Below are positions 7,730-47,352 of a stretch of DNA of 64,000 bases, in pieces. Position numbers and translations under genes: made by a program. This DNA is from a virus. A model generated the notes under the pieces. The model was not told the DNA's origin. It saw nothing but the letters and a program-made list of their open reading frames with translations, and did not search any database. How positions within the stretch are numbered: the first letter of the stretch is position 1; each line of letters opens with the position of its first letter. The stretch lies in IMG/VR virus record IMGVR_UViG_3300023179_000038, positions 46,678 to 110,677 of that record; one strand, written 5' to 3'.

Positions 7730-10700
7730 TTACACTACCTCACTTAAATATACTCTTGTTTCTGGTCCATTTGTATTTCTAATATATTCAATATTATACA
7801 CTACAAATCTTGAGTCTTTAGCAGATATCTCGTTAGTTTCACTTGAATCTTTATAGTCTATCTCAACTATATCTCCTAATTGTAAGTGTGGCGTTCCAAA
7901 AGTTTGAACCCCAACAGACTTTCTTGGTTTCATAATTTTTGAAATTACCCAAGACATTACTTCCTGTGCATCATCTTGTGTTTGAATATATGGAGCATCT
8001 ATATAAAAATCTTTTTTACCATAAGTCATTCTGCTTGCCTTTATGTCGTCATATTGCTTATTAAATATTAATGGTGATTTTATTAATAAATTATTATTAA
8101 ACTTTGGATTAGAAAAATCGCTATTTTGAGAAAAATATTCATCTACGCTATAATTATGTTCTGATTCTTGAGTAAATGTTACTCCCTGTATTCTTAAATA
8201 ATTTCCACTTGTTGAATCAAGATTAAGAGATGTATCAGTTGAATTAAAAATTAAAAATTCTGCACCATAAGATCCAGCCCTAAATCCAGAAATTGCATAT
8301 CCTTTTAATTTGTTAAATGTTGGAGATATTATTGCATATAGCGCTGGATATGCTTTATCATATCTAATATTAAAATATGCTGCTTCTCTCATAATAGTTC
8401 CAAATTCCTCAAAATAAATATTGTATTTTGGAGTATTGTTTGGATCTATTCCAGATAAATATGTGGACTGCACAATACCACTCATAGAATATTTTCTAAA
8501 AGATTCATTTGCATCAATCTCAGAATCATTGATTGCAGTCATTACTGGAGTATCTAGCGCAAAAACTGTATTTTGACTATAATTGTTTGTTAAAGCATAA
8601 ATATTTTCAAACATACATCTTGCAGATCCACGAACAAAAAGAGCCATATTGTTGTAAATTGGTAGTGGATCTTTATCATCAACTATAGCAATGATCTTAT
8701 TGTTAATATATAAATAAAATCTTCTAATTGTTCCAATATTTTGATATTCTACTGCCAAGTCATATACTGTTGGATTTTCTTCTCCAACCATCCTATACTG
8801 ACCAGTAAAATTACCATCATCCACAATAATGTTTGATAATCCACCCCACAACTTTATTGGAATTGCATCTCCTTGTTTAATGGTAGTTCCCGATACATCA
8901 GAAGCACTTCTCTTTATTTTATAAAAAATAACGTTATGTAAATTTTCTGCAGAAGTATTATAGTTATTAATGTTATTTTCTGTTAATGCTAAAATTTCAA
9001 AATAATATCCTACGTTTGTTGATGGATTTATCATGACGGCCATTCCTCCAGAACCACCGCTAATATTAATATTTTGATCTGGAGTATTTCCAGTAACAAC
9101 GAAATATGTTGTAGAACCAATAGGAGTTTGACCTCTATTTTCGTTGTTTTCAATTTTTCCAACAATTCTCATTCTGGTACCAAAGTGTTTAAATCTATCA
9201 TCTAATGGCTTATTGACATATGAAATAAAATCAATTCCATTTTGAGTTGTAGTAAATGATGGTCCACTAATAACTAATGCAGATGATTGAATAGTTCCAG
9301 ACTGTGTAGATAGTATAGAATTAGATGTAACTTCGTCCTTATATGAAAGTGTTAAAAAGTTTTTAATTGTTCCAGACCTTATTGACTGCTTTGCCAATTC
9401 ATTGCTTACTCCCGCTGCTAAGTTATCAACTGGCATACTTAAAGATTGAGACTGTAAATCTTCTGTTGAAGATAGTGAAAATAATAAATCAGATTTCATG
9501 CTGCAGCCACGAACATTTAAATTATTAGACCAATATTGATTTATACCTGCATTATGAAAAGTAATACTTGTTCCAAATTGTGCACGACCATGTTTTTCAA
9601 CATCGCCATTTTTTAATCTTGTTATTTCATTGATATTTTCATAAAAAGGTTTAGCATAGATTCTTATAAGACCCGTTGGATATATTTTCCCATTATGTCG
9701 TAACTTAGAAAAATAATTTTGATAATCTTGTGTGCTTGTTATCCATACATTGCCATAATCAGTAATGCTGTACTCAACAGCATCATATTTAATTACTTCT
9801 CCATTAGCATAAAAATATCCGTTATACCTTGTAATCCAGTAAACACCTTCTCCTAAATCCATAGTATTATTTATTATTTTATGGTTTGACACAGATGGAA
9901 CTAAATTGTTAAGATCAGAATTTAGGGGTATTGCACTTAAAATATAATCTGATTGCCTGCCACTACTATCATTTATGGATTTTGTATTTTCTGTACCTTC
10001 AACTTCCCAAAGTAATGATGGCTTATATATCCAAGTTTTTTCTTTATCAATTAAACTTGCCTGTCTTATTGAGCCATAAGTTTTTTGAATATACTTTGTT
10101 TTATATTTAATTAATCCATCATTAAAAACTTCTGTATTTTGTGAAGCAATACCAACAATATTTGAAATATTACTTGAAATAGTTTTATTTTTAACAACAC
10201 CGTCTTTTTCAATATCTTTTGATCCATAAAAAACAATATCTGTATTTCTTTGATCTGTTGTTGGCATTATATAGTTTTTGCTCATACACACAAAATTATT
10301 GTATTCATCAAAAAACATAGCAGTTTGAGTTGATCTTGCTAAATCATTTAATATTTCTGCAACTGTTTTATCGGGTGGAATAAAGAAAAATGGAATAATA
10401 CTTTCTTTTTCAAAATTTATTCTTTTAAAAATATAATTAGAAAAACCTATTGAATCTAATAACATAGATATTGCACTACTAACAGAAACGTTTGTTAATA
10501 AAATTTGTGGTGCAATTAATGACTCTAAGTAAAAAAACATATCTCGTAATTGAATAGATACTGTTCGTGATCTATTATCTGTTGCTGGAAACCCTTCAGT
10601 ATACATAGTTTTGATAGGGATAAAATAACTAGATTGTTCCTCATCTGTAATGATTTCATAAAACTTTATTTGAATATTTTTTGTAATAAAATCTTTTATT

Positions 10701-29959: not shown

Positions 29960-32900
29960 TCATATGGCATTTTGAACTGTTGATTGCCATAGTGCGTCGG
30001 CATATATGCGATATTCATAATTATTTAACCTAAATTGTCTTGTATCATCAATAATAAATTTATTTGTACCAACGTAACTCTTATATATATCTGATGGCTT
30101 AACCCCATAATAAGAGGTGTTGGATAAAACTAATACACCTTGCCAAACATATGCAGAATCCCAATACTGCCAATCAAACTCAATGCCACCATCACTTTTT
30201 ACTCTAAACCAAGGTCTTTCTGTAATATTTTGAACTTCTTGTAAATTTGTAGATTTATAGGTAGACACAAGATTTACTAATAAAGGACCATTTATTTTAA
30301 TAGATCCTGTGTAATTATTAAAATCTAATAAACTAGAAAAAGATATTCCAATCATAGACCACTCTTTAATGTTTATTACTGGATCTTTAACAATATTTCC
30401 ATTTAAATAAAATCCAATGCCCTGCTCTATTTGTCCAGTTTTAGTATTAACTGCATAAATTTTTGCTCTTTTGCCATTGGCATTAGAAGCAACCATAAAA
30501 AATTTAATTATTGAGTCTTTAGATTCAACTTCAAATATTTGTGTTGGTGCATATGGAAAAATATCTTCATCAAATCTAATTGCCATTTGCATTGCCATAA
30601 CCTTATAGTTAGAAGATGACTCTGGATTTATGGGAATTAAAACACCACGGTTTATTAGTGGATCAAACTGACCTCTAACTTTAATTCCAGAGTGTCTTGT
30701 TAAATATAAGTATGGGGAACTGTCTTTATAAATTGTGTAAGGATTTCTATCCTTATAATTATAATATAGACCATTCTTTATATACGGATATATCGAAGTT
30801 CCAAATTTTGTGCCAATTGCATTTGGAATAATATCATTAAATGCTTGAGAGGCTAATTGAAGTTTTTTAATTTTAATTTTATTTTTTATAATATCATTGA
30901 CCTTAAATTTTAATTGTACTACTATTGCTAACTTATTGAAATCTATATTTTTAGGTGGATATATAATCATGTCATTTACAACTTCATATTTTGTTTGCAT
31001 CCAACTAGTTCCTGGCTCAATTACTCCATTTTTAGGAGCCATCTCTGTATTAATAAAAAATGAATCTGGTGCATTTGCTCCAGACTCTAAATACTGAAAA
31101 GTAATATAAGATTTAACTAATGCGTTATCCGTATCATATCTATAATTTACCTCTGAATTATTTTTTAAATCATCATAGTTTAAGTATTCAGTAAATAAAT
31201 TATTATCTAAAGATTGATACGTTCTTAATTCTGGTGAAGAATATTTTAGTTGTAACTCATTATAGGTCCATGAACTATTGACACGATCTTCAGTAAAACT
31301 TAATGGTGATGGATAGTTAATATTAAATTGAATTAAATCTAAATCATAGTAGGAATCATTTCTTGAATCCGTAACATATTGAGCAAAATACGATAGTGGA
31401 ACATGGTCTTCCCATGTACCCTCAATATCAACAGTTAGGTAAAAGTTATTAAAATTTTTAACTGATACAAGTGTATAACTTGCAGTATGAGAAATTAAAG
31501 AATCTCCTGGAAAAGAAGATGGTGTTCCTCCATCTAAAAGAAAATCCCAAAAAGATGATGGTAGTTGAACATTTCCAGATAAATCTAACTCATCTTCAAA
31601 ATACTCGTCTCCAGCATCATGATCTATTTCTTCTGTGTAATTATTAAAAACATCTTCAAAGTTTATCGGAATTCCTGAAATTGGATTAAATAAATAAGTT
31701 ATTGGTATAAGGTTTTTACTAGAGCAAAATCCTATCTTATAAACATTTCCATCAAAAGTTTTTTGTAATTCTTTGCATCCTCCTACATACAGTTTTGCAG
31801 AAGATAAATTTCCAAAAAATGATGCAATTCTTTTTCCAAAATAATCTATAAATATAGTTTTATATATTCCGACAACAAATTTTTCATCGATAAATACTGG
31901 AACTGACTGATAAAGAGTATCTATTTGTTCAGTCAAAGAACCATTTTCCATGGTTTCATATTTTAATAAGTATGTTATTTTTCCATCTATTAATTCAATA
32001 CTAAAGTACTCTTTCGTAGAATCATTATCTATTCTCAACAAAATAGTATCATTATTAAAAGATGAAACACTAAATATTCCATAAAAAGCATCTGATGAAG
32101 TAACTAGTCCAACATCATTAAATAGTAAGTATCCCTGTGTATTTTGCCAATTTTGATTTGGCTTTAATTTAAAATATTGATGATTTGTAATTTGAAGATT
32201 TACAGAGTCTGTGTAAAAATCTTCTAAACTTTTATTATTAAAAAATACTTCTGGTAATTCATAATTTTTACTTGTCAAACAATTTTCTCTTACATCTAAA
32301 TTATCTATAGAGGCTTGAGACCAAGATCCTAAATCAGGATACATATAGTTATTTGTATAATTTGCAAAAGAATAATCAATAAAAGTAGAAGTTCCACTGT
32401 ATGAAGCATTAATATTTTCTGGAATCTCTACACCTTGACCATATACAAACCTTCTTTTTGCAACAATAGATGGTATTGGATATGAATATATAGAAATACA
32501 ATCTACTTCTATAGGAAATACATCTTCATAAGAATAAAATCCAAGCCAATCTTGTTGTTTATTTTGATAGTACGGTTCTGGAAAGGACAGAGATGTAGTC
32601 AAAAGATTTAAAGATATAACCTCATCTCCATTAATCATTAATGAAGCAATATTGTTGCTATATCTTATATGTACAAGCATTGGTCTTGCCCATTCTCCAA
32701 CATAATGAGATTCAAAACTGTTTCCAATTTTTAATAAAATAAAAGGACCTTCTACATATAATCCATCATCCGAAGCAATTGGTCCAAAAATTCTTTTCTT
32801 TGTATAAGAATCAGAATTTATTTTTAACCACATTTCTACAGTATATTCTTTAAACTTTCCAGAATTATTTAAAAATCCGTATCCAGGAAATATTAAAGAT

Positions 32901-33697
32901 GGCTTATTGTTATTTGGAGAAATTGATGTTGTGCCTGTTGATCCATAAACCATTGGAATGCCAGAATTTTTTGCAACTAAAGAATTATTTTGTATAAGAT
33001 AATATCCTGGAATATTTTCTAGACCATATGACTTTGCTTCAACTGCATAATCACAATCAACATTAATTATTTCTGGAAACAATATTTTTTCTAAACCAAG
33101 AGAAGTAGAATTAAACTCTTCTGACCATTGTCCAGCAGTTACACCATTAACATAAAATATATAATCATCTTGTGTTCCACCAGAAATATAATTAATCTTT
33201 ATAACAATTTGTATTGAACCCACTTCGGATAAAATAGGAAATGTTTCTGAAACAAAAACCCATTTTCCATAAACAGATGTTCCAAAATTTTTTATTTTTT
33301 CAACAGTATCGCCAATTGTTTCATCATAGTATCGATAACCAATCTCAATTCCAGAAATATAAGAACTATTAGAATAAAAATAAGATCCAATACAAAAGTT
33401 TTGCATATAGTCATTAAGATCTTCTAAATTAAAAACCTCATCACTAATACATACAATCTGACCAGATTCTTCTGTAAAAAGATTTCCAACTATTTTTGTT
33501 ACTGAAGAAGATGGAAATGGCTCATCTGTTATATCATCATCAGAATAAGCAGAGCCTCCGTCTATTGACCAAGAATAAATATTTCTATCATTTTCTGATA
33601 TTAAAGAAATATAGTCTATGTTATCATCTAAAGCCCAAATAGATGTGGGATGTTCAGAAAATATTTTTTCTGCATACAGGTTTGAAGGAATAGACAT
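29960..33697 (-). CDS. Large virion-associated protein with LamG/concanavalin-like domain
   Basis: N-terminal YAEKIFSEHPTSIWALDD and EYTVEMWLK...LMINGDEV LamG-like pattern. Confidence 0.6.
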   Translation of the reverse strand: MSIPSNLYAEKIFSEHPTSIWALDDNIDYISLISENDRNIYSWSIDGGSAYSDDDITDEPFPSSSVTKIVGNLFTEESGQIVCISDEVFNLEDLNDYMQNFCIGSYFYSNSSYISGIEIGYRYYDETIGDTVEKIKNFGTSVYGKWVFVSETFPILSEVGSIQIVIKINYISGGTQDDYIFYVNGVTAGQWSEEFNSTSLGLEKILFPEIINVDCDYAVEAKSYGLENIPGYYLIQNNSLVAKNSGIPMVYGSTGTTSISPNNNKPSLIFPGYGFLNNSGKFKEYTVEMWLKINSDSYTKKRIFGPIASDDGLYVEGPFILLKIGNSFESHYVGEWARPMLVHIRYSNNIASLMINGDEVISLNLLTTSLSFPEPYYQNKQQDWLGFYSYEDVFPIEVDCISIYSYPIPSIVAKRRFVYGQGVEIPENINASYSGTSTFIDYSFANYTNNYMYPDLGSWSQASIDNLDVRENCLTSKNYELPEVFFNNKSLEDFYTDSVNLQITNHQYFKLKPNQNWQNTQGYLLFNDVGLVTSSDAFYGIFSVSSFNNDTILLRIDNDSTKEYFSIELIDGKITYLLKYETMENGSLTEQIDTLYQSVPVFIDEKFVVGIYKTIFIDYFGKRIASFFGNLSSAKLYVGGCKELQKTFDGNVYKIGFCSSKNLIPITYLFNPISGIPINFEDVFNNYTEEIDHDAGDEYFEDELDLSGNVQLPSSFWDFLLDGGTPSSFPGDSLISHTASYTLVSVKNFNNFYLTVDIEGTWEDHVPLSYFAQYVTDSRNDSYYDLDLIQFNINYPSPLSFTEDRVNSSWTYNELQLKYSSPELRTYQSLDNNLFTEYLNYDDLKNNSEVNYRYDTDNALVKSYITFQYLESGANAPDSFFINTEMAPKNGVIEPGTSWMQTKYEVVNDMIIYPPKNIDFNKLAIVVQLKFKVNDIIKNKIKIKKLQLASQAFNDIIPNAIGTKFGTSIYPYIKNGLYYNYKDRNPYTIYKDSSPYLYLTRHSGIKVRGQFDPLINRGVLIPINPESSSNYKVMAMQMAIRFDEDIFPYAPTQIFEVESKDSIIKFFMVASNANGKRAKIYAVNTKTGQIEQGIGFYLNGNIVKDPVINIKEWSMIGISFSSLLDFNNYTGSIKINGPLLVNLVSTYKSTNLQEVQNITERPWFRVKSDGGIEFDWQYWDSAYVWQGVLVLSNTSYYGVKPSDIYKSYVGTNKFIIDDTRQFRLNNYEYRIYADALWQSTVQNAI

Positions 33698-33733: not shown

Positions 33734-34228
33734 TTAATTTTTTGGAATCCACAACTTTTCGTTACCTTTATTGTGATACCTTGCCATAACAAACAGTAGG
33801 TCCGAAAGCCTGTTTAAGTATTTTGCAATATTTATGTTTAATCCTTCAACTTTCCAAACCTCACGCTCTGCCCTTCTCACAATAGTTCTTGCGTTATGTA
33901 AGGGACCTGTAGGTAAAACAAAAGAATGAAGCGGCTCTAGGTACTCGTTATAATCATCAATTATATTTTCTAAATGAGTGATTCTTTCTTCTGATATTGT
34001 TATGGTTGGAGCACCAGAAAGTTCTGCACCAAGATCAAATAAATCACTTTGGATTCTGTCTATGATGTCATTATGATATTCCGTCGCCATTCCAATAGCG
34101 GAGTTGGCTTCATCTACTGCACCTATTGCTTCAATTAAAGAACTGCTTTTGTCTATTCTTTCATTTGTAGCGGTAGAGGTTTTTCCATCATCGCCAGTCT
34201 TTGTATAAATACGAGTTAAGTGAACCAT
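33734..34228 (-). CDS. pduO: ATP:cob(I)alamin adenosyltransferase, PduO type
   Basis: TRIYTKTGDDG, GAVDEANSAIG, IQSDLFDLGAEL, ARTIVRRAER, YLNRLSDLLFVMAR. Confidence 0.95.
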   Translation of the reverse strand: MVHLTRIYTKTGDDGKTSTATNERIDKSSSLIEAIGAVDEANSAIGMATEYHNDIIDRIQSDLFDLGAELSGAPTITISEERITHLENIIDDYNEYLEPLHSFVLPTGPLHNARTIVRRAEREVWKVEGLNINIAKYLNRLSDLLFVMARYHNKGNEKLWIPKN

Positions 34229-34392
34229 TAGTGCCCTGTCAAAGAACGCCAGATATCAACTGTAATGCTGTTGGCTATATAAAGTCCAACCAAATTTATA
34301 ACCAATTGAAATGCGTACTCAATTTTAGTAGGTTTCTTTTTTTGTAACGGAAAATCTATAACATTATATAATTCTTTATAGGCTAATCTCAT
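34228..34392 (-). CDS. 54-aa small membrane protein (not in ORF track)
   Basis: MRLAYKELYNVIDFPLQKKKPTKIEYAFQLVINLVGLYIANSITVDIWRSLTGH; start and stop overlap both neighbours. Confidence 0.65.
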   Translation of the reverse strand: MRLAYKELYNVIDFPLQKKKPTKIEYAFQLVINLVGLYIANSITVDIWRSLTGH

Positions 34393-34844
34393 GGAAATAT
34401 TAACTCTCCTTTAGGACCAGTCCAAACCAATCCAACTGAGTCTCCTGGATTTAAATATTGTTGATCTATGGCAAGTTGTCCCCAACCCCACTCATTGCGT
34501 GGAAATGGAATAACTTGTTTTTCTTTTATTATAATTGCCCAATACGCTTCTGCGGGTGGCATAACTTCACAAGACTCTGCCTTTTCATCTGGCAAACCAT
34601 TAACTCTACAAACTACTCCAAGTCCGTATTTTTTAGTGCCTTCTATTTCAAGGTTGGCTTGTTTTAAAACATCTAAAGCAAGAATGCTACTAGATGATTC
34701 TACACATTTTTCTAACTTTGTTTGATTATCTAAAACTCCATAATCAACATAAAGATTTATACAGTTGTTATCTGGTTTGTTTATAACAAACAGTGTTGCT
34801 CCAACTGCTATAAAAATTGCTAATGATGCTAGTATTTTTTTCAT
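34389..34844 (-). CDS. Exported DUF4430/SCO2322-like (transcobalamin C-terminal-like) protein
   Basis: Signal/anchor peptide; ALDVLKQA..GTKKYGLGVVCRVNGLP..C..PPAEAYW..W..L.PGDSVG pattern. Confidence 0.65.
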   Translation of the reverse strand: MKKILASLAIFIAVGATLFVINKPDNNCINLYVDYGVLDNQTKLEKCVESSSSILALDVLKQANLEIEGTKKYGLGVVCRVNGLPDEKAESCEVMPPAEAYWAIIIKEKQVIPFPRNEWGWGQLAIDQQYLNPGDSVGLVWTGPKGELIFP

Positions 34845-34854
34845 TTTATCCCAC

Positions 34855-36891
34855 TTAGTATAATTTTATCTCACAAGCGTCTGTACTGCAATAGGCTTCA
34901 CCTTGTGCTTCTAGATTTTCTACTCCATCATAGATGGCAGACCAGTCAATCTTTGCAATTTTGCCTACGTAAGAATTGTACTCTTCTCTTGTAATATTGT
35001 TATATGGTTGTTGTGGAAATGTTTCATTGCCCATTGGCAAAAATGAAACAGCCTTTAATTCGCCCTCATAAAGATGAAGTGCTGGAGCCACATGTTTTTT
35101 TTCTGTTTCTTTATCAAATGATAGAGTTACAGATACTCCATTATCAGACCAGTATTTTTGAGCGGTAGCAGCCAAACCAATCTTTTCAAAAAGACTTACA
35201 TCTTTTTCAGAACGTGGATGTTCAGATGCTACTGGAAAATATACTACTGAAGTATTGGCAGACACTAAGTCTGCTTCTACTTTATACCCTGCTGCTTTGA
35301 ATAAATGAAGCATTGGATCTGTATTTCCAAACCTTATGGCACGTAGATAAAATGCCCCTCCTGGACCCCAGTGAACTCCTGGTGTTGCACCAGAAAGTAG
35401 TGAAACGGATCCTGAAGGTTTGACAGTAGTTACACGAATTGATTCACGTACACACAGCCACTCAGAGTATGAGTGATCGTATGCTTTAATTTTTTTATAC
35501 CCTTCGTCCATCCATTCACGAACTGCTGGCATGCCTTTTGTATCTGCAAAAGATGCAATACCAGTTAAAGATGTTCCAATACGACGATTACGTTGCATAA
35601 TACCATTTGTGGTTTGCCAATGTGTTGGCATCAGGGTTACAGTCTTTCCATATAAATACGCAAACTTTAGTGTACGAAGAAAATCTTCTTTATCTTCATG
35701 ACGGTTTAAGTGAACCTCTACTAACGTACATAGTTCGTATGATTCTAATGGTTGTTCTGCACATGGATTAAAGCCCATTACACGATAATCTTTTCCATCT
35801 GGTGCATCTGCAAGTCTTCCATAGTTACGAGCAACGTCAAGCCAAATAAATCCTGGCTCTCCATTATCTGCAATTAAATCAACATAGTCTTCATAGTTTG
35901 TTCCAACTTCTGCAGCAATAGAGTTATTGGACATCCAAGCCCACCCTGGATTTTTTGGATCATAAGAATTACGTTCTGGAAAAACCTCTGCATTTTTTAA
36001 ATTACTAAAATCTTTGTCATCTGCATCTCCTAAAGCAAGAGTGGCAGAACGACGAACATTTCCTGAAACTACGCAGGTACCAATAAGATTAACAATATCT
36101 ACTATTGCACGAGAGTCAAATTTGTCCCCTGCCCTAGATCCTATAATTTTTGTAATACGGTTGTGTAAGTCCATTAATGGCTCTGGACCACTGGCTACCC
36201 CACCAAAACCCTTAATAGGTGCTCCTAGAGGCCTTATAAAGTCATACGTGAACTGTTGTATAGGTTGGTTTGGACGCAGGTATGAATTAATTAATAATCT
36301 TACAGACTCAACCCAACCCTCTCTAGTATCAGGAATTTCATATATTGAGGGTGGCTCTGTTGGCGCATAGATTAACATTTCTTTCTCTTGTCCAAGGGTA
36401 TCAAACCCTACCCCTATGCCTAGCATTAATGCATCCATTACCCAGGCAAACAATGCCCCTGGATCATTACGATCAATGTCACGAGTAGAAACCATTGCAC
36501 AATTTTGTAAAGCAGCAGAGTTGCGTTTTTCCATTGTCATAGGAGTACCAAAAGCCCATAAGCCACGACCAGGGGGAGTCCATTTTAAATTAAACATTCG
36601 ATCAAATGCTTCTTGTGCAGATTTTTGTGCCTTATAGTCGTTCCAAGGTAAACGATTTTCTTTAGCATGATTTTTTTGAACAGAATACATTCCTTCAATT
36701 ACACGTTTGCAAACTTCATACCATCTTTCTTTAGTATTGTCTTCTTTCATGCGAGAATATGTTCTAATAAAAGTAATCTCTCCCAAAGAATTACTAGCAG
36801 CATCTTTAAATCCGAAGGGCGCTTCAAGTTTTTTATAACTCTCTATAAAATCTAATGATAATTTAAAAGAAAAAAAGTCTGACATATGCAT
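34855..36891 (-). CDS. nrdJ: Class II (AdoCbl-dependent) ribonucleotide reductase, monomeric RTPR type
   Basis: PPGRGLW, GNVRRSA, NPCAEQPLESYELCTL, TTVKPSGSVS, C-terminal CSTDAC. Confidence 0.95.
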   Translation of the reverse strand: MHMSDFFSFKLSLDFIESYKKLEAPFGFKDAASNSLGEITFIRTYSRMKEDNTKERWYEVCKRVIEGMYSVQKNHAKENRLPWNDYKAQKSAQEAFDRMFNLKWTPPGRGLWAFGTPMTMEKRNSAALQNCAMVSTRDIDRNDPGALFAWVMDALMLGIGVGFDTLGQEKEMLIYAPTEPPSIYEIPDTREGWVESVRLLINSYLRPNQPIQQFTYDFIRPLGAPIKGFGGVASGPEPLMDLHNRITKIIGSRAGDKFDSRAIVDIVNLIGTCVVSGNVRRSATLALGDADDKDFSNLKNAEVFPERNSYDPKNPGWAWMSNNSIAAEVGTNYEDYVDLIADNGEPGFIWLDVARNYGRLADAPDGKDYRVMGFNPCAEQPLESYELCTLVEVHLNRHEDKEDFLRTLKFAYLYGKTVTLMPTHWQTTNGIMQRNRRIGTSLTGIASFADTKGMPAVREWMDEGYKKIKAYDHSYSEWLCVRESIRVTTVKPSGSVSLLSGATPGVHWGPGGAFYLRAIRFGNTDPMLHLFKAAGYKVEADLVSANTSVVYFPVASEHPRSEKDVSLFEKIGLAATAQKYWSDNGVSVTLSFDKETEKKHVAPALHLYEGELKAVSFLPMGNETFPQQPYNNITREEYNSYVGKIAKIDWSAIYDGVENLEAQGEAYCSTDACEIKLY

Positions 36892-36970
36892 AATCTCCTA
36901 TTGTTTTGAATAACTAATTATAGCAGAGTTTTCAAAAAAGAAAAACTCTACCTAAAGTTATAGTATAGAG

Positions 36971-37477
36971 TTATTTAGATTCTAAAACAATCTGTCTTAA
37001 TTTTGATATTAGGGCTTCAATATTATTAATATGAAGTTTATAAAATTCATATTTTGTGTTTTGAACTTGGTCCAACTCATTTGCATATAAAATTTCTAGT
37101 AAAGATAATTGTTTTTGTGGATCTAAATTCATGGAGTTTTTTAAAATAATTTCATTTCGATCTTTTAATGAAAAATAATATACAAGTTCTTCTGCATCTT
37201 TACCTATATAAAGAATCACATCTTCTTTGTTAATTTTATCCTTTAAATTAAATTTTTCAGTACCATAGCAAGAATGATAAAGTCCAGCCAGACATGTTTT
37301 CTCTGAAGCACCCATACTTTTTAATAAAAAGAAAACATTGTATAGGTGTGCAAAAAGAGAACCCCTTAAGTGAGGAATATGTTTTATTTTATCAAAAAGG
37401 TATTTAACTGCTAATACTTCTTTTTCTGTAAATTTAATTTCTTTTTCTGTAAAGTTAATCATTATTAATTTATCCAA
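36971..37477 (-). CDS. HD-like DUF6817-type protein
   Basis: HLRGSLFAHL...CLAGLYHSCYGTE...IGKDAEELVYYF...ANELDQ. Confidence 0.65.
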   Translation of the reverse strand: MDKLIMINFTEKEIKFTEKEVLAVKYLFDKIKHIPHLRGSLFAHLYNVFFLLKSMGASEKTCLAGLYHSCYGTEKFNLKDKINKEDVILYIGKDAEELVYYFSLKDRNEIILKNSMNLDPQKQLSLLEILYANELDQVQNTKYEFYKLHINNIEALISKLRQIVLESK

Positions 37478-38271: not shown

Positions 38272-39441
38272 TTAAGCAGGAGTACTTGGAGTAAAGTCTT
38301 TTACAAGCATTTTCTTAGTAAAGAAGTTATCATATGGCTCGCAGTTTATAGCAACTTTTTGCATATATAATTCTACAGCCTCAACAAGTTCAATATCAAC
38401 AAATGCATTGTCTTCAAATGAATATCTTTGATATGTTGTATCTATTTGTGATGATTGAATAAACTTTACAACGCCATCTTTTTTAGTTAAAATCCAGTGT
38501 GTATTAGAAAACATATCTCCATCAATGTATACGAAGTCTGTTTCTGTTTGAATACCAATCCATGTAATTGTAGTTTCAACAACATTTAAATCTGATACAT
38601 TTACGTTTGAAGGAAGTGTCCAATTTTGCCAATATGCTGCAGAGTTATCATTAGACTCATCTCCAAGATCTAAGGCTAAAAGTTTATCTCCAACTTGAAG
38701 TTGACCAGCAGGCTTTGTTGCTTGTGGTTCACCTGCAACTGTTGATAAAAGAACTTCTGTATTTATGTTTAGTGACCAGTCAAAGCCAAATGCACCAAAA
38801 GCACCAAATGCACCAAAAGCACCGAAAGGTGCAAAGGAAAATGTTGTAGTTACGTTGTTTGAGTTTGAAGATGTTCCAGAGTTTCCATTGGCATTAGTTG
38901 CACGAACGTTATATGACTGTGCAGTTCCTTGCTCTTGTCCAACGTCAACAGATGTTGATGATGTATTTCCAGATTTACCATCTGTTGATTGCCAGAAATA
39001 ATTAGTTATTGCGCTACCACCGTTATTTGGCGCTGACCAAGAAATTCTGTCAACTCCAGCAGATGGTGATGATGCTGAAGGCGCTGAAGGTGTTTGTGGT
39101 ACGGTTGTTGCAGTAATGCTATTAGACGCAGCAGATGCTGGAGAGTTTCCAACTGCATTTGTTGCTACAACTGTAAATGTGTATGCTGTGCCTGATTGTA
39201 GACCAGTTACAGATATAGGAGATGATGCTCCTGAAGCAGTATATGATCCTGGAGAGGATGTTACTGTATAAGATGTAGCAGCAGGGCCTGATGAATCATG
39301 TGTAAAGGTTACATCTGCTCGTCCATTATTAAATGCACGTCCCGATCCAACATTTGTTGCTGATACTGAAGTTGGTGCCTTTGGCTCCAAAAAGTCATTT
39401 GATGCTTGGGACTTTTTACCTGATTTTTTACCTGCTGCCAT
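38272..39441 (-). CDS. Fn3-domain protein with (FGA)n repeat and C-terminal Hint-like domain
   Basis: Two Fn3 units (VTGLQSGTAYTFTVVATN); FGA repeats; SLNINTEV..LQVGDKLL..SNTHWIL..INCEPYDNFF Hint blocks. Confidence 0.75.
   Translation of the reverse strand: MAAGKKSGKKSQASNDFLEPKAPTSVSATNVGSGRAFNNGRADVTFTHDSSGPAATSYTVTSSPGSYTASGASSPISVTGLQSGTAYTFTVVATNAVGNSPASAASNSITATTVPQTPSAPSASSPSAGVDRISWSAPNNGGSAITNYFWQSTDGKSGNTSSTSVDVGQEQGTAQSYNVRATNANGNSGTSSNSNNVTTTFSFAPFGAFGAFGAFGAFGFDWSLNINTEVLLSTVAGEPQATKPAGQLQVGDKLLALDLGDESNDNSAAYWQNWTLPSNVNVSDLNVVETTITWIGIQTETDFVYIDGDMFSNTHWILTKKDGVVKFIQSSQIDTTYQRYSFEDNAFVDIELVEAVELYMQKVAINCEPYDNFFTKKMLVKDFTPSTPA
38783..38840 (-). repeat. 9-bp tandem repeat encoding FGA x4
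   Basis: gcaccaaa(a/t) units. Confidence 0.85.
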
Positions 39442-39473: not shown

Positions 39474-40823
39474 TTAAGCCATTAAGTCGCCGTATACAAC
39501 CCATGTGTTTTCTGCTCTCTTGAAAAGAGTTGCAGATGACCATTGAGTGCGTAACTTTAAGCCTGGTGTAGCATTAACTGTAACTCCAGCAGATGCTGCA
39601 ATTGTAACCTGTCCAGTTGAAGTTTGAAGAATATCAATAGATGTTCCTACTGGATATGCTACTGCAGAGTTTGCAGGAATTGTAATTGTAGTTGCAGATG
39701 ATGAAGCAACTTCAATCAAAGAATCTCTTTCAGTAAGTGATGAAAGTGTATATGAAGCAGATTTTTGAATAATTGGTGTTCTAGATGGTACACCTTCTTT
39801 AGATTGAGTTCCATCTGTAAAGGCTACTCCAGATGCTGCAACTGTTACAAGACCTGTAAATGTTGGAGTATTGATTGGTGCTTTTGCAGCAAGTCCATTA
39901 GTAACTGTTGTTGCAAAGTTTGCATCGTCACCAAGTGCTGCTGCAAGTTCATCAAGAGTATTAAGTGCTGCTGGGGCAGATGCGATTACTGCATTTACCT
40001 GAGATGTTGCATCTGCAATAGCCTCTGACTTAGCAGTTGCGATTGCTGCAGCCTGTGCTGTAGATACTGGCTTGTTTGCATCTGATGTATTGTCAACATT
40101 TCCAAGTCCTACTGAAGACTTTGTAAGTGCTGCTACTGCAGTTGCAATCTTTGAGTCTGCTGCTGTTCCTGCTGCTGTAACTGCATCTGTTTCTGCTGTA
40201 TCTACATAAGACATTGTTGCAAGAAGCGATGTATTTGCAATTCCATGAACATTTGTTGTTTGTGAATTGTGTGTTGAAATCTTTGTATCTGCTGCTGTTC
40301 CTGCTGCTGTAATTGCTGCTGTTTCAGCATCTGAAGCCTTTCCATCAGTATAAACTTTTGTTGCAAGAAGTGCTGTGTCGGCAATTCCATGAACATTTAT
40401 TGTTGCTGCTGTGTGGTCAGATAATTGAGTTAAACTAGCCTTTTGTGATAGGGCAACCAGCATGGTTGATGCAAATGTTGCGTCATCTTCAATTGCTGCT
40501 GCTAACTCATTAAGTGTATCTAATGCTCCTGGAGCACCATCAATTAGGTTTCCTAATTGTGATAAAGGAACTCTTCCTTGTGCGTCAAGTGATGCTACAC
40601 CGTTTACTTGTCCCTTTGTGTCTACTGGAACATAGTCATCTAGGGATCCGCCAAGATCTTCTAAATTTTTAAAATATGATAAATCTTCCCAATGGTTAAT
40701 TCCATCACCAATTTTAAATTGTCCAGTATCAGATTCAAATCCGATTTCTCCTGCTGCCAAAATTGGGTCTGCTGCAGTCCATTGTGCTGCGGTTCCTCTG
40801 CGCTGTTGCATTCTTGTTGCCAT
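39474..40823 (-). CDS. Tail fibre with Mtd-N-like N-terminal domain
   Basis: RMQQRRGTAAQW..DPILAAGEIGFESDTGQFKIGDG; APGALDTLNELAAA repeats. Confidence 0.8.
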   Translation of the reverse strand: MATRMQQRRGTAAQWTAADPILAAGEIGFESDTGQFKIGDGINHWEDLSYFKNLEDLGGSLDDYVPVDTKGQVNGVASLDAQGRVPLSQLGNLIDGAPGALDTLNELAAAIEDDATFASTMLVALSQKASLTQLSDHTAATINVHGIADTALLATKVYTDGKASDAETAAITAAGTAADTKISTHNSQTTNVHGIANTSLLATMSYVDTAETDAVTAAGTAADSKIATAVAALTKSSVGLGNVDNTSDANKPVSTAQAAAIATAKSEAIADATSQVNAVIASAPAALNTLDELAAALGDDANFATTVTNGLAAKAPINTPTFTGLVTVAASGVAFTDGTQSKEGVPSRTPIIQKSASYTLSSLTERDSLIEVASSSATTITIPANSAVAYPVGTSIDILQTSTGQVTIAASAGVTVNATPGLKLRTQWSSATLFKRAENTWVVYGDLMA

Positions 40824-46404: not shown

Positions 46405-47352
46405 TTAAACTAAAACAGATATTTGTTTTTCCCAAAACTCAGAAATATGTAAATGTCTGTGTAGTCCAGGATGTGGCCAATGTGCTCCAGAACCTTTTAG
46501 CCGTCCATAGTTATAGGGGATTTTATGATAGTCATATGCGTGTTCAAATATGTCTGGATATTTATCTTTATATTCTTTATGGCATCCCTGCCAATTTATC
46601 ATTTCAAAATAAGGAGGCAATCCAGATATATTTTCTGGATTACATCCAAACTCAAAGGCTGTAGGAAATTGTGTTTTTGTTGTGTCTGTAACGTAATGTC
46701 TAAAATTATTTTTTAAAAATTTTTCTTCTTTTTCTGTTAATCTATTTGACCATGTAGTCCAAATTAATTTAATATCATTAGATTCACAAAAAGCCTCTAG
46801 CATTTTAATATGATCTAGATTTTGATAATAGACCCACTCATATGGCAAAATTTCTTCATAGTCCCAAGGAGCCGATGCCTTTGTTTTTTTTTCTTTATGA
46901 TTAATGTACCACATGTGCATTGCATTAGCATCTTGGCTAATAAAATAAAATCTTTCAAAATTAGCAAAATGTGCAAGTACTACTTTTGGTTTATATTTGT
47001 ACTGATGAATCATTCCAAAAAAACTTGACACCAATAGATTTGCAGATGCTCCAGAATAAGATATGTTTCCAATGGGCTTATTAATTTTGTCTGAAAGAAT
47101 ATTAGACCATCTAAGGTTTTCTGGCATTCCCTGTCCTAATGTCAATGAGCATCCTAAAACTACAACTTCTGGATTTGTAGAAAATTCTACAGATCTCAGT
47201 CCATCACTATTCCATACATAATTATATTCTGGTCTTTCTATTTCTGAATGTGATGCCAATACTGCATTAGTAACAGAATAATTTGTATTAGGGTATTTTC
47301 TATTGATTCCACAATAAGGAATAACTCTTGGGTTAAATATATCAAATAGCAT
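46405..47352 (-). CDS. SGNH-like hydrolase/acyltransferase-type protein
   Basis: LGCSLTLGQG block I, GAS block II, C-terminal HPG..H. Confidence 0.55.
   Translation of the reverse strand: MLFDIFNPRVIPYCGINRKYPNTNYSVTNAVLASHSEIERPEYNYVWNSDGLRSVEFSTNPEVVVLGCSLTLGQGMPENLRWSNILSDKINKPIGNISYSGASANLLVSSFFGMIHQYKYKPKVVLAHFANFERFYFISQDANAMHMWYINHKEKKTKASAPWDYEEILPYEWVYYQNLDHIKMLEAFCESNDIKLIWTTWSNRLTEKEEKFLKNNFRHYVTDTTKTQFPTAFEFGCNPENISGLPPYFEMINWQGCHKEYKDKYPDIFEHAYDYHKIPYNYGRLKGSGAHWPHPGLHRHLHISEFWEKQISVLV

Follow-up and report, generated by a model that had tools for sequence, protein, structure and literature searches.

A 64,000-nucleotide stretch of viral DNA (positions 46,678 to 110,677 of the IMG/VR virus record IMGVR_UViG_3300023179_000038; hereafter the window) carries on its minus strand four consecutive genes, nrdJ, p151, p54 and pduO, which are probably a phage-borne cobalamin (vitamin B12) salvage cassette, a single translationally coupled unit that would secure the cofactor for phage DNA synthesis. 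The source is a single record of 110,677 bp with a CheckV completeness of 99%. An earlier note, made from the sequence alone, had read these genes as a capture-activate-use pathway, and that reading is supported in silico by the two enzymes at the ends of the unit, by the predicted fold of p151, and by the linkage of the genes across related viruses.

Enzymes that make and use the cofactor

The outer genes had been assigned to an enzyme requiring adenosylcobalamin (AdoCbl) and an enzyme forming it, and both products score above curated cut-offs. NrdJ matches the RNR_Alpha, RNR-II_ins_dom, and Ribonuc_red_lgC families (PF17975, PF21995, and PF02867, respectively), reaches 356.2 bits against TIGR02505 (curated equivalog cut-off 340.05), and aligns over its full length with the ribonucleoside-triphosphate reductase (RTPR) of Lactobacillus leichmannii, 1L1L (phmmer E 1.6e-97). 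All five catalytic cysteines are present, and the NPC(A/G)E thiyl-cysteine motif, the redox cysteine pair, and the C-terminal CxxxxC align with 1L1L (NCAMVS/NCWFVA, NPCAEQPL/NPCGEISL, ELCTL/EPCNL, and CSTDAC/CEGGAC, NrdJ being given first); the roles of these residues are presumably those established for RTPR. NrdJ is thus shown by homology to be a monomeric AdoCbl-dependent RTPR, predicted to make deoxynucleoside triphosphates (dNTPs) from nucleoside triphosphates.

PduO covers positions 1-170 of the 171 in PF01923 (E 2.8e-47; 161 bits against a cut-off of 24), scores 150 bits against TIGR00636 (cut-off 108), and has the N-terminal motif YTKTGDDGKT. Homology likewise shows it to be an enzyme of the kind that uses ATP to convert cob(I)alamin to AdoCbl, an activity predicted here from its sequence.

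NrdJ is the sole B12 user found in the phage genome, in which no B12-binding Rossmann domain was found. The genome also lacks an S component of an energy-coupling factor (ECF) transporter (no PF12822 match), an alpha-toroid, and EcfT, and its only ATP-binding cassette (ABC) ATPase candidate is an ABC_tran match below the cut-off; therefore, any import must use host machinery. No corrinoid-remodelling or heme-using genes were found in the phage among the families searched.

A stand-alone transcobalamin-beta-like protein

The second gene product, p151, has no usable match in Pfam (E≤10), NCBIfam, or PHROGs, and a profile of its family found nothing among PDB sequences. Its fold was predicted with AlphaFold2 from a 68-sequence alignment (mean predicted local distance difference test score 87.8, predicted template modelling score 0.77), giving a beta-grasp ectodomain at residues 27-145. 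The earlier note had proposed a comparison of this protein with the transcobalamin beta domain, and an unbiased scan of the model against 48,161 PDB representatives with VIA-align returned strong matches only to the beta domains of B12 carriers and to 3U7Z, a DUF4430 structure. The top five entries were bovine transcobalamin (2BB6, Z 10.8), the isolated human transcobalamin beta domain (5NO0, Z 10.4), 3U7Z (Z 10.3), haptocorrin (4KKJ, Z 10.3), and intrinsic factor (2PMV, Z 10.2), superposed over 93-96 residues at a root-mean-square deviation (rmsd) of 2.6-3.1 Å, which covers the whole ectodomain; for 3U7Z, 95 of 96 residues were superposed at 3.1 Å. The next match was a generic beta-grasp protein at Z 6.2. 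Foldseek, used independently, also ranked 3U7Z (E 6e-4) and the transcobalamin beta domain first.

Although this fold is common to p151, 3U7Z, and the beta domains of transcobalamin, intrinsic factor, and haptocorrin, sequence identity to them is just 13-21%. Unlike the three animal carriers, p151 has no alpha6-alpha6 barrel partner and no match to the Pfam family Cobalamin_bind (PF01122), and two disulfides of its own are likely. The beta domain of human transcobalamin binds cobalamin and cobinamide even in isolation (PMC5599065). p151 is a predicted corrinoid binder, on the structural model a stand-alone transcobalamin-beta-like domain and by sequence a distant member of the SCO2322 superfamily.

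The N-terminus of p151 has a basic start followed by a hydrophobic segment of 17-19 residues (residues ~4-22; Kyte-Doolittle mean 2.0-3.0), with no lipobox and no conserved signal-peptidase site. From these features it is read as a signal anchor or signal peptide that would place the remainder of the protein outside the membrane, with anchoring more likely than free export. Of the earlier description of p151 as an exported protein, the extracytoplasmic placement stands as a prediction, and free export is the less likely form of it. A role as a virion-displayed B12 'Trojan horse' was considered and rejected on the grounds of the signal/anchor sequence.

Homologues of p151 form 170 clusters at 90% identity, nearly all of 150-152 amino acids, and 180 matches were found among representatives at 50% identity. 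About 38 positions are invariant in 27 diverse orthologues, including four cysteines; W102, W119, R80, and E90 are likewise invariant. Both middle open reading frames of the cassette are real genes and not chance ones, p151 because of its 170 homologous clusters and four invariant cysteines, and p54 because its 49 distinct orthologues keep an invariant terminal nonapeptide while third codon positions vary.

Linkage across viral genomes

The four tightly coupled genes described in the earlier note were recovered as open reading frames at exactly the same positions, with junctions that overlap or nearly abut. NrdJ and p151 are separated by a 10-nt spacer, p151 and p54 overlap in ATGA, and p54 and PduO overlap in TAATG; a scan of the minus strand inside the four-gene unit found 0 intrinsic terminators. 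Whether p151 stays with its neighbours in relatives, which the earlier note had proposed as a test, was assessed in 80 related IMG/VR loci, each count covering the loci that extend far enough to show the gene in question. The gene immediately before p151 is nrdJ in 65/65 loci, and PduO follows p54 in 72/75. The three loci that depart from this (L025, L031, and L032) keep nrdJ-p151-p54 without pduO, the p54 stop codon falling directly before a large gene of the 1245-amino-acid type found after the cassette in the window; PF01923 was not found elsewhere in these fragmentary records.

The unit also persists in divergent backgrounds. One lineage (L042) keeps it with different neighbours and with NrdJ and PduO at 63% and ~50% identity, respectively, and another (L074) keeps it although its NrdJ is only 27% identical. 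Three scans of viral contigs for distant p151-like proteins were made, two of which yielded none and one of which yielded L173, where a p151 relative of 43% identity is followed by a small open reading frame ending in ...EIWRSMTGH and then by PduO. Among the products of the main lineage, p151 evolves fastest, with a median identity of 77%, against 89% for NrdJ and 93% for PduO, and no frameshifted or truncated copies were found in 78 loci.

The p54 micro-protein

The third gene had been described as encoding a small membrane protein, and its product is indeed conserved with one predicted membrane helix. It occurs in 78/78 of the related viral loci that reach far enough, as 49 different sequences with a length of 44 or 54 amino acids, and always begins in the ATGA overlap with p151 and ends at the PduO start. 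The last nine residues, DIWRSLTGH, are essentially invariant over 45 nucleotide versions, in which all codons but that for tryptophan vary at the third position, so that the tail is conserved under synonymous change in 79 loci. It is also kept in the three loci without PduO and is therefore not merely a ribosome-binding site for PduO. These substitution patterns indicate strong purifying selection on the p54 peptide.

The single helix of p54 is moderately hydrophobic (Kyte-Doolittle median 1.53), with a net charge of +3 on its N-terminal side and 0 on its C-terminal side, a distribution that predicts an N-in, C-out topology, in which the tail and the p151 domain would share one side of the membrane. 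p54 has no Pfam, NCBIfam, or PHROG match, only two entries in a large protein database, and no counterpart by motif or hidden Markov model (HMM) in cellular ECF loci or in CbrT; within the searches made here, it was found only in phage DNA. None of its Protein Atlas matches reached 0.85, and scores this low are noise. The name 'Sss1/SecE' given to it in one JGI record was rejected, as p54 has no Pfam match at E≤10, SecE included. Co-variation between p151 and p54 was likewise dropped as a sign of interaction, because the mosaic recombination visible in the identities extends to this pair of genes as well.

Cellular relatives and bacterial counterparts

Distant relatives of p151 (phmmer E 1e-10 to 1e-15) are actinobacterial lipoproteins, and 39 of the 76 distant homologues scanned match NF040672, the 'SCO2322 family'. 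SCO2322 proteins are the closest sequence relatives of p151, at about 30-45% identity and with four cysteines and R, E, and W positions in common, and they are extracytoplasmic, as predicted for p151, and associated with B12 use, MetH being encoded alongside. Unlike p151, the cellular proteins have an LxGC lipobox and an insertion of ~11 residues, and EcfT-A-A′ and an S component come after their genes, whereas p54 comes after p151.

This context was established in 80 cellular SCO2322 loci, all from Microbacteriaceae and including freshwater Aurantimicrobium, Aquiluna, Pontimonas, and Rhodoglobus. Where there was room to check, a fused EcfT-EcfA-EcfA′ comes directly after the SCO2322 gene in 71/71 loci, an ECF S component comes next in 64/64, and a convergent gene for B12-dependent MetH adjoins in 59/59. 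The earlier note had called p151 DUF4430/SCO2322-like and placed such proteins beside ECF genes; the relatives and the ECF context are borne out by these counts, and a direct HMM match to either family model is not. In the same loci (L081-L160, at about 8500-10500 in each), the ECF module is a single polypeptide of ~570-690 amino acids with an EcfT/CbiQ-like N-terminus and two ABC ATPase domains, and the SCO2322-ECF unit lies tail-to-tail with metH. The Microbacteriaceae S component has no PDB sequence match and for that reason is not tied to CbrT.

Some distant homologues fuse the p151-like domain to an alpha-alpha toroid of the squalene-cyclase/prenyltransferase type, as in transcobalamin, and one gave a sub-threshold match to the eukaryotic Cobalamin_bind family. 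Five bacterial proteins of this kind, of 650-1030 amino acids, were noted (P0188, P0213, P0240, P0183, and P0209), with the p151-like domain N-terminal and the toroid downstream in four and the p151-like domain C-terminal in P0209. As candidates for bacterial 'full-length transcobalamin-like' proteins, most of them have the two domains in the opposite order to that of the mammalian carriers.

The closest parallel to the cassette as a whole comes from lactobacilli. In L. delbrueckii, the cluster nrdJ-cbrS-cbrT-pduO surrounds the experimentally proven B12 transporter ECF-CbrT, which transports both cobalamin and cobinamide (Santos et al. 2018, PMC5997447). A 319-kb replicon of L. intestinalis (RefSeq) carries nrdJ, a DUF4430 protein (128 amino acids, with a lipobox), an ECF S component (174 amino acids), and an adenosyltransferase with overlapping junctions, and the order on an L. 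reuteri plasmid is nrdJ, DUF4430, an IS30 element, and adenosyltransferase. The phage cassette has the identical gene order, the same tight coupling, and the same import-adenosylate-use logic as nrdJ-cbrS-cbrT-pduO. It differs in its third gene, which encodes a single-pass peptide of 44-54 amino acids instead of an ECF S component of ~175 amino acids and six helices, and in p151, which is predicted to be signal-anchored whereas CbrS is a lipoprotein. The Lactobacillus operon carries its own S component, whereas the virus-borne version must rely on a host transporter. Matching a known bacterial operon in both logic and gene order, the cassette looks like a phage-borne version of that B12-salvage operon, with a phage-specific micro-protein in place of the S component.

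At the sequence level, p151 resembles CbrS only marginally, and alignment of the p151 family with the C-terminus of the L. intestinalis DUF4430 protein is no more than suggestive, the motif YW...WAQ.G..QQ...D.V standing at the same place in both. No experimental test of CbrS function was found in the literature searched. On the Mycobacterium intracellulare plasmid pM018 (L179), an RTPR-type nrdJ, two hypothetical genes, and a DNA polymerase form a phage-like context, with no DUF4430 or PduO annotated.

Proposed role and alternative explanations

Fold and context support the assignment of p151, on the predicted structure, as an extracytoplasmic accessory protein of the kind encoded ahead of B12-type ECF transporters (CbrS/DUF4430 and SCO2322). 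In the proposed pathway, p151, positioned outside the host membrane, would capture cobalamin or a similar corrinoid and pass it to a host importer, most likely a host ECF system, and this step would raise the B12 supply during infection. Host reductants would then yield cob(I)alamin, which PduO would adenosylate, and NrdJ would use the resulting AdoCbl to provide dNTPs for phage replication. p54 might sit beside p151 in the membrane with its tail on the outside, as a partner indispensable to docking, hand-off, or anchoring. A bolder version, which we hold to be rather unlikely, makes p151 and p54 a minimal phage-invented two-piece cobalamin receptor, in which the beta-like domain would grip the nucleotide side of B12 and the ...TGH tail of p54 would supply an axial histidine ligand or a lid, the task of the alpha domain in transcobalamin; the pair would plug into or re-target the host importer, replacing the host binder and a dedicated S component.

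Several observations weigh against the salvage reading. Neither family model recognizes p151 directly: the DUF4430 HMM (PF14478) has no match at E≤10 to p151 or to the six-frame translated genome, and the SCO2322 HMM (NF040672, cut-off 85 bits) has none to p151 at E≤1 or to the genome at E≤10. In hhalign, the p151 family aligns with the L. intestinalis DUF4430 protein (CbrS) at E 1.5e-4 with a probability of 52% over 36 C-terminal columns, and two shorter Lactobacillaceae proteins gave nothing. Neither the window nor nine cellular SCO2322 loci gave a match to a cobalamin riboswitch in Rfam, and the cellular counts come from the single family Microbacteriaceae and hence are not independent. The link between p151 and B12 rests on the modelled fold and the gene neighbourhood, as does that of the SCO2322 proteins and CbrS. 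Very tight binding by transcobalamin needs both of its domains, and the phage has the beta-like half only. Finally, a related ECF operon of L. sakei, with exported transcobalamin beta- and alpha-like proteins, has been linked by deletion and docking to heme uptake (bioRxiv 10.1101/864751).

This last result favours an alternative in which p151 binds another tetrapyrrole or an incomplete corrinoid (heme, cobinamide, or pseudocobalamin) and the cassette scavenges a precursor or other cofactor, as do the binding of cobinamide by the isolated transcobalamin beta domain (PMC5599065) and its transport along with cobalamin by ECF-CbrT (PMC5997447). We consider this unlikely, given that p151 is coupled between an AdoCbl-dependent and an AdoCbl-forming enzyme in 65/65 and 72/75 loci, that its cellular homologues adjoin B12-dependent MetH, and that the phage genome revealed no corrinoid-remodelling or heme-using genes among the families searched. 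A non-nutritional role for p151 and p54, such as superinfection exclusion or masking of a B12-uptake component on the host surface that serves related phages as a receptor, with the adjacency of nrdJ and pduO reflecting descent from a captured operon, appears distinctly unlikely. The persistence of the unit with different flanks and very different NrdJ proteins argues against it, as do the retention of the p151-p54-PduO trio in the 43%-identical lineage and the ATGA and TAATG overlaps, which tie translation to that of the enzymes; no similarity to known exclusion proteins was found either, PADLOC not having been searched. In its favour, p151 evolves faster than its neighbours (77% versus 89% and 93%), as surface-exposed proteins typically do when pressed by host or phage, the cassette sits among tail-fibre-like genes, and p54 has no cellular counterpart.

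Decay offers another account of the two middle genes, as remnants of a captured nrdJ-cbrS-cbrT-pduO operon in which the S component has become a stub and only NrdJ and PduO matter. The gene order is that of the Lactobacillus operon, p54 occupies the S-component slot while being far too small to be one, and PduO has been lost in L025, L031, and L032. This account is contradicted by the signs of purifying selection, namely the four invariant cysteines and ~38 invariant positions of p151 in 27 orthologues, along with its confident fold, and a p54 tail that is invariant under synonymous change in 79 loci; the 78 loci without frameshifted or truncated copies and the lack of similarity between p54 and the L. 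intestinalis CbrT point the same way, and we judge it very improbable.

Novelty and implications

RTPR-carrying viruses are abundant in aquatic systems, and their hosts are mostly unable to make B12. For the question of how such viruses secure a scarce vitamin, the cassette is a concrete and widespread candidate, found on 80 viral contigs and with 170 p151 clusters at 90% identity. RTPR-type NrdJ is widespread among known phage class II ribonucleotide reductases and is common to them and the cassette, whereas a related lake actinophage, DSL-LC01, has RTPR alone in contrast to the full cassette here. p151 matches none of 50,697 GenBank phage records, and PduO occurs in only 15 of them, mostly short unannotated ones; a fold search of BFVD with p151 gave nothing at E≤0.001. 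That RTPR viruses might 'regulate or enhance B12 uptake' has been put forward as a suggestion only (Wu et al. 2023, PMC10547690), and no description of a phage B12-capture gene was found in the literature searched. If the salvage reading is true, the cassette would be the first set of auxiliary genes in a phage to span the capture, activation, and use of a vitamin, and would offer a handle on the function of bacterial CbrS, DUF4430, and SCO2322 proteins. The cassette is small, two genes being sufficient for direct tests of B12 binding and uptake, and p54, 44-54 amino acids long with nine invariant residues at its end, adds a new micro-protein that lacks known relatives.

Locus layout, neighbouring genes, and likely host

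The features of the locus are collected in Table 1. The possible promoter element listed there was not in the output of a two-hexamer promoter scan, and a promoter and terminator scan of the cassette region gave sites no commoner than expected by chance. A tRNA scan of the window found none.

Table 1. Features of the cassette and their positions in the 64,000-nucleotide window
Feature	Position	Strand	Description	Basis
nrdJ	34855..36891	-	Monomeric class II AdoCbl-dependent RTPR, 678 amino acids (by homology)	Family HMMs and 1L1L alignment
p151	34389..34844	-	151 amino acids, N-terminal signal/anchor and predicted transcobalamin-beta/DUF4430-fold ectodomain	AlphaFold2, VIA-align, Foldseek, phmmer
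p54	34228..34392	-	54 amino acids, predicted single-pass micro membrane protein	Conservation, hydropathy
pduO	33734..34228	-	PduO-type ATP:cob(I)alamin adenosyltransferase, 164 amino acids (by homology)	PF01923, TIGR00636
Possible extended -10 element TGcTATAAT	36917..36925	-	Lies ~25 nt before the nrdJ start; an AGGAG ribosome-binding site comes after it	By-eye reading, low confidence

WhiB proteins are characteristic of actinobacteria and of the phages that infect them. The left part of the phage genome, outside the window, contains a WhiB-family gene (PF02467, E 3e-13; G000:C1:14888-15061), and the host of this freshwater phage is therefore probably an actinobacterium. The actinobacterial affinity of p151 points the same way.

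Directly upstream of the cassette, between a gene of 248 amino acids and nrdJ, a DUF6817 protein (PF20680, 4e-18; phrog_20220) is encoded at 36971-37477 (minus strand). It has no tblastn match in any of the 80 related viral loci, and by this comparison the gene looks like a genome-specific insertion. Also upstream, at 38272-39441 and 39474-40823 (minus strand), are genes for an fn3-containing protein and a protein with an Mtd_N (major tropism determinant N-terminal) domain, so that the nucleotide and B12 genes are embedded among fibre-like genes. Directly after the cassette, at 29960-33697 (minus strand), a 1245-amino-acid product has a weak Laminin_G_3 match; its identity across loci is 40-58%, compared with 70-97% for the flanking genes, and it is probably a fast-evolving host-recognition protein.

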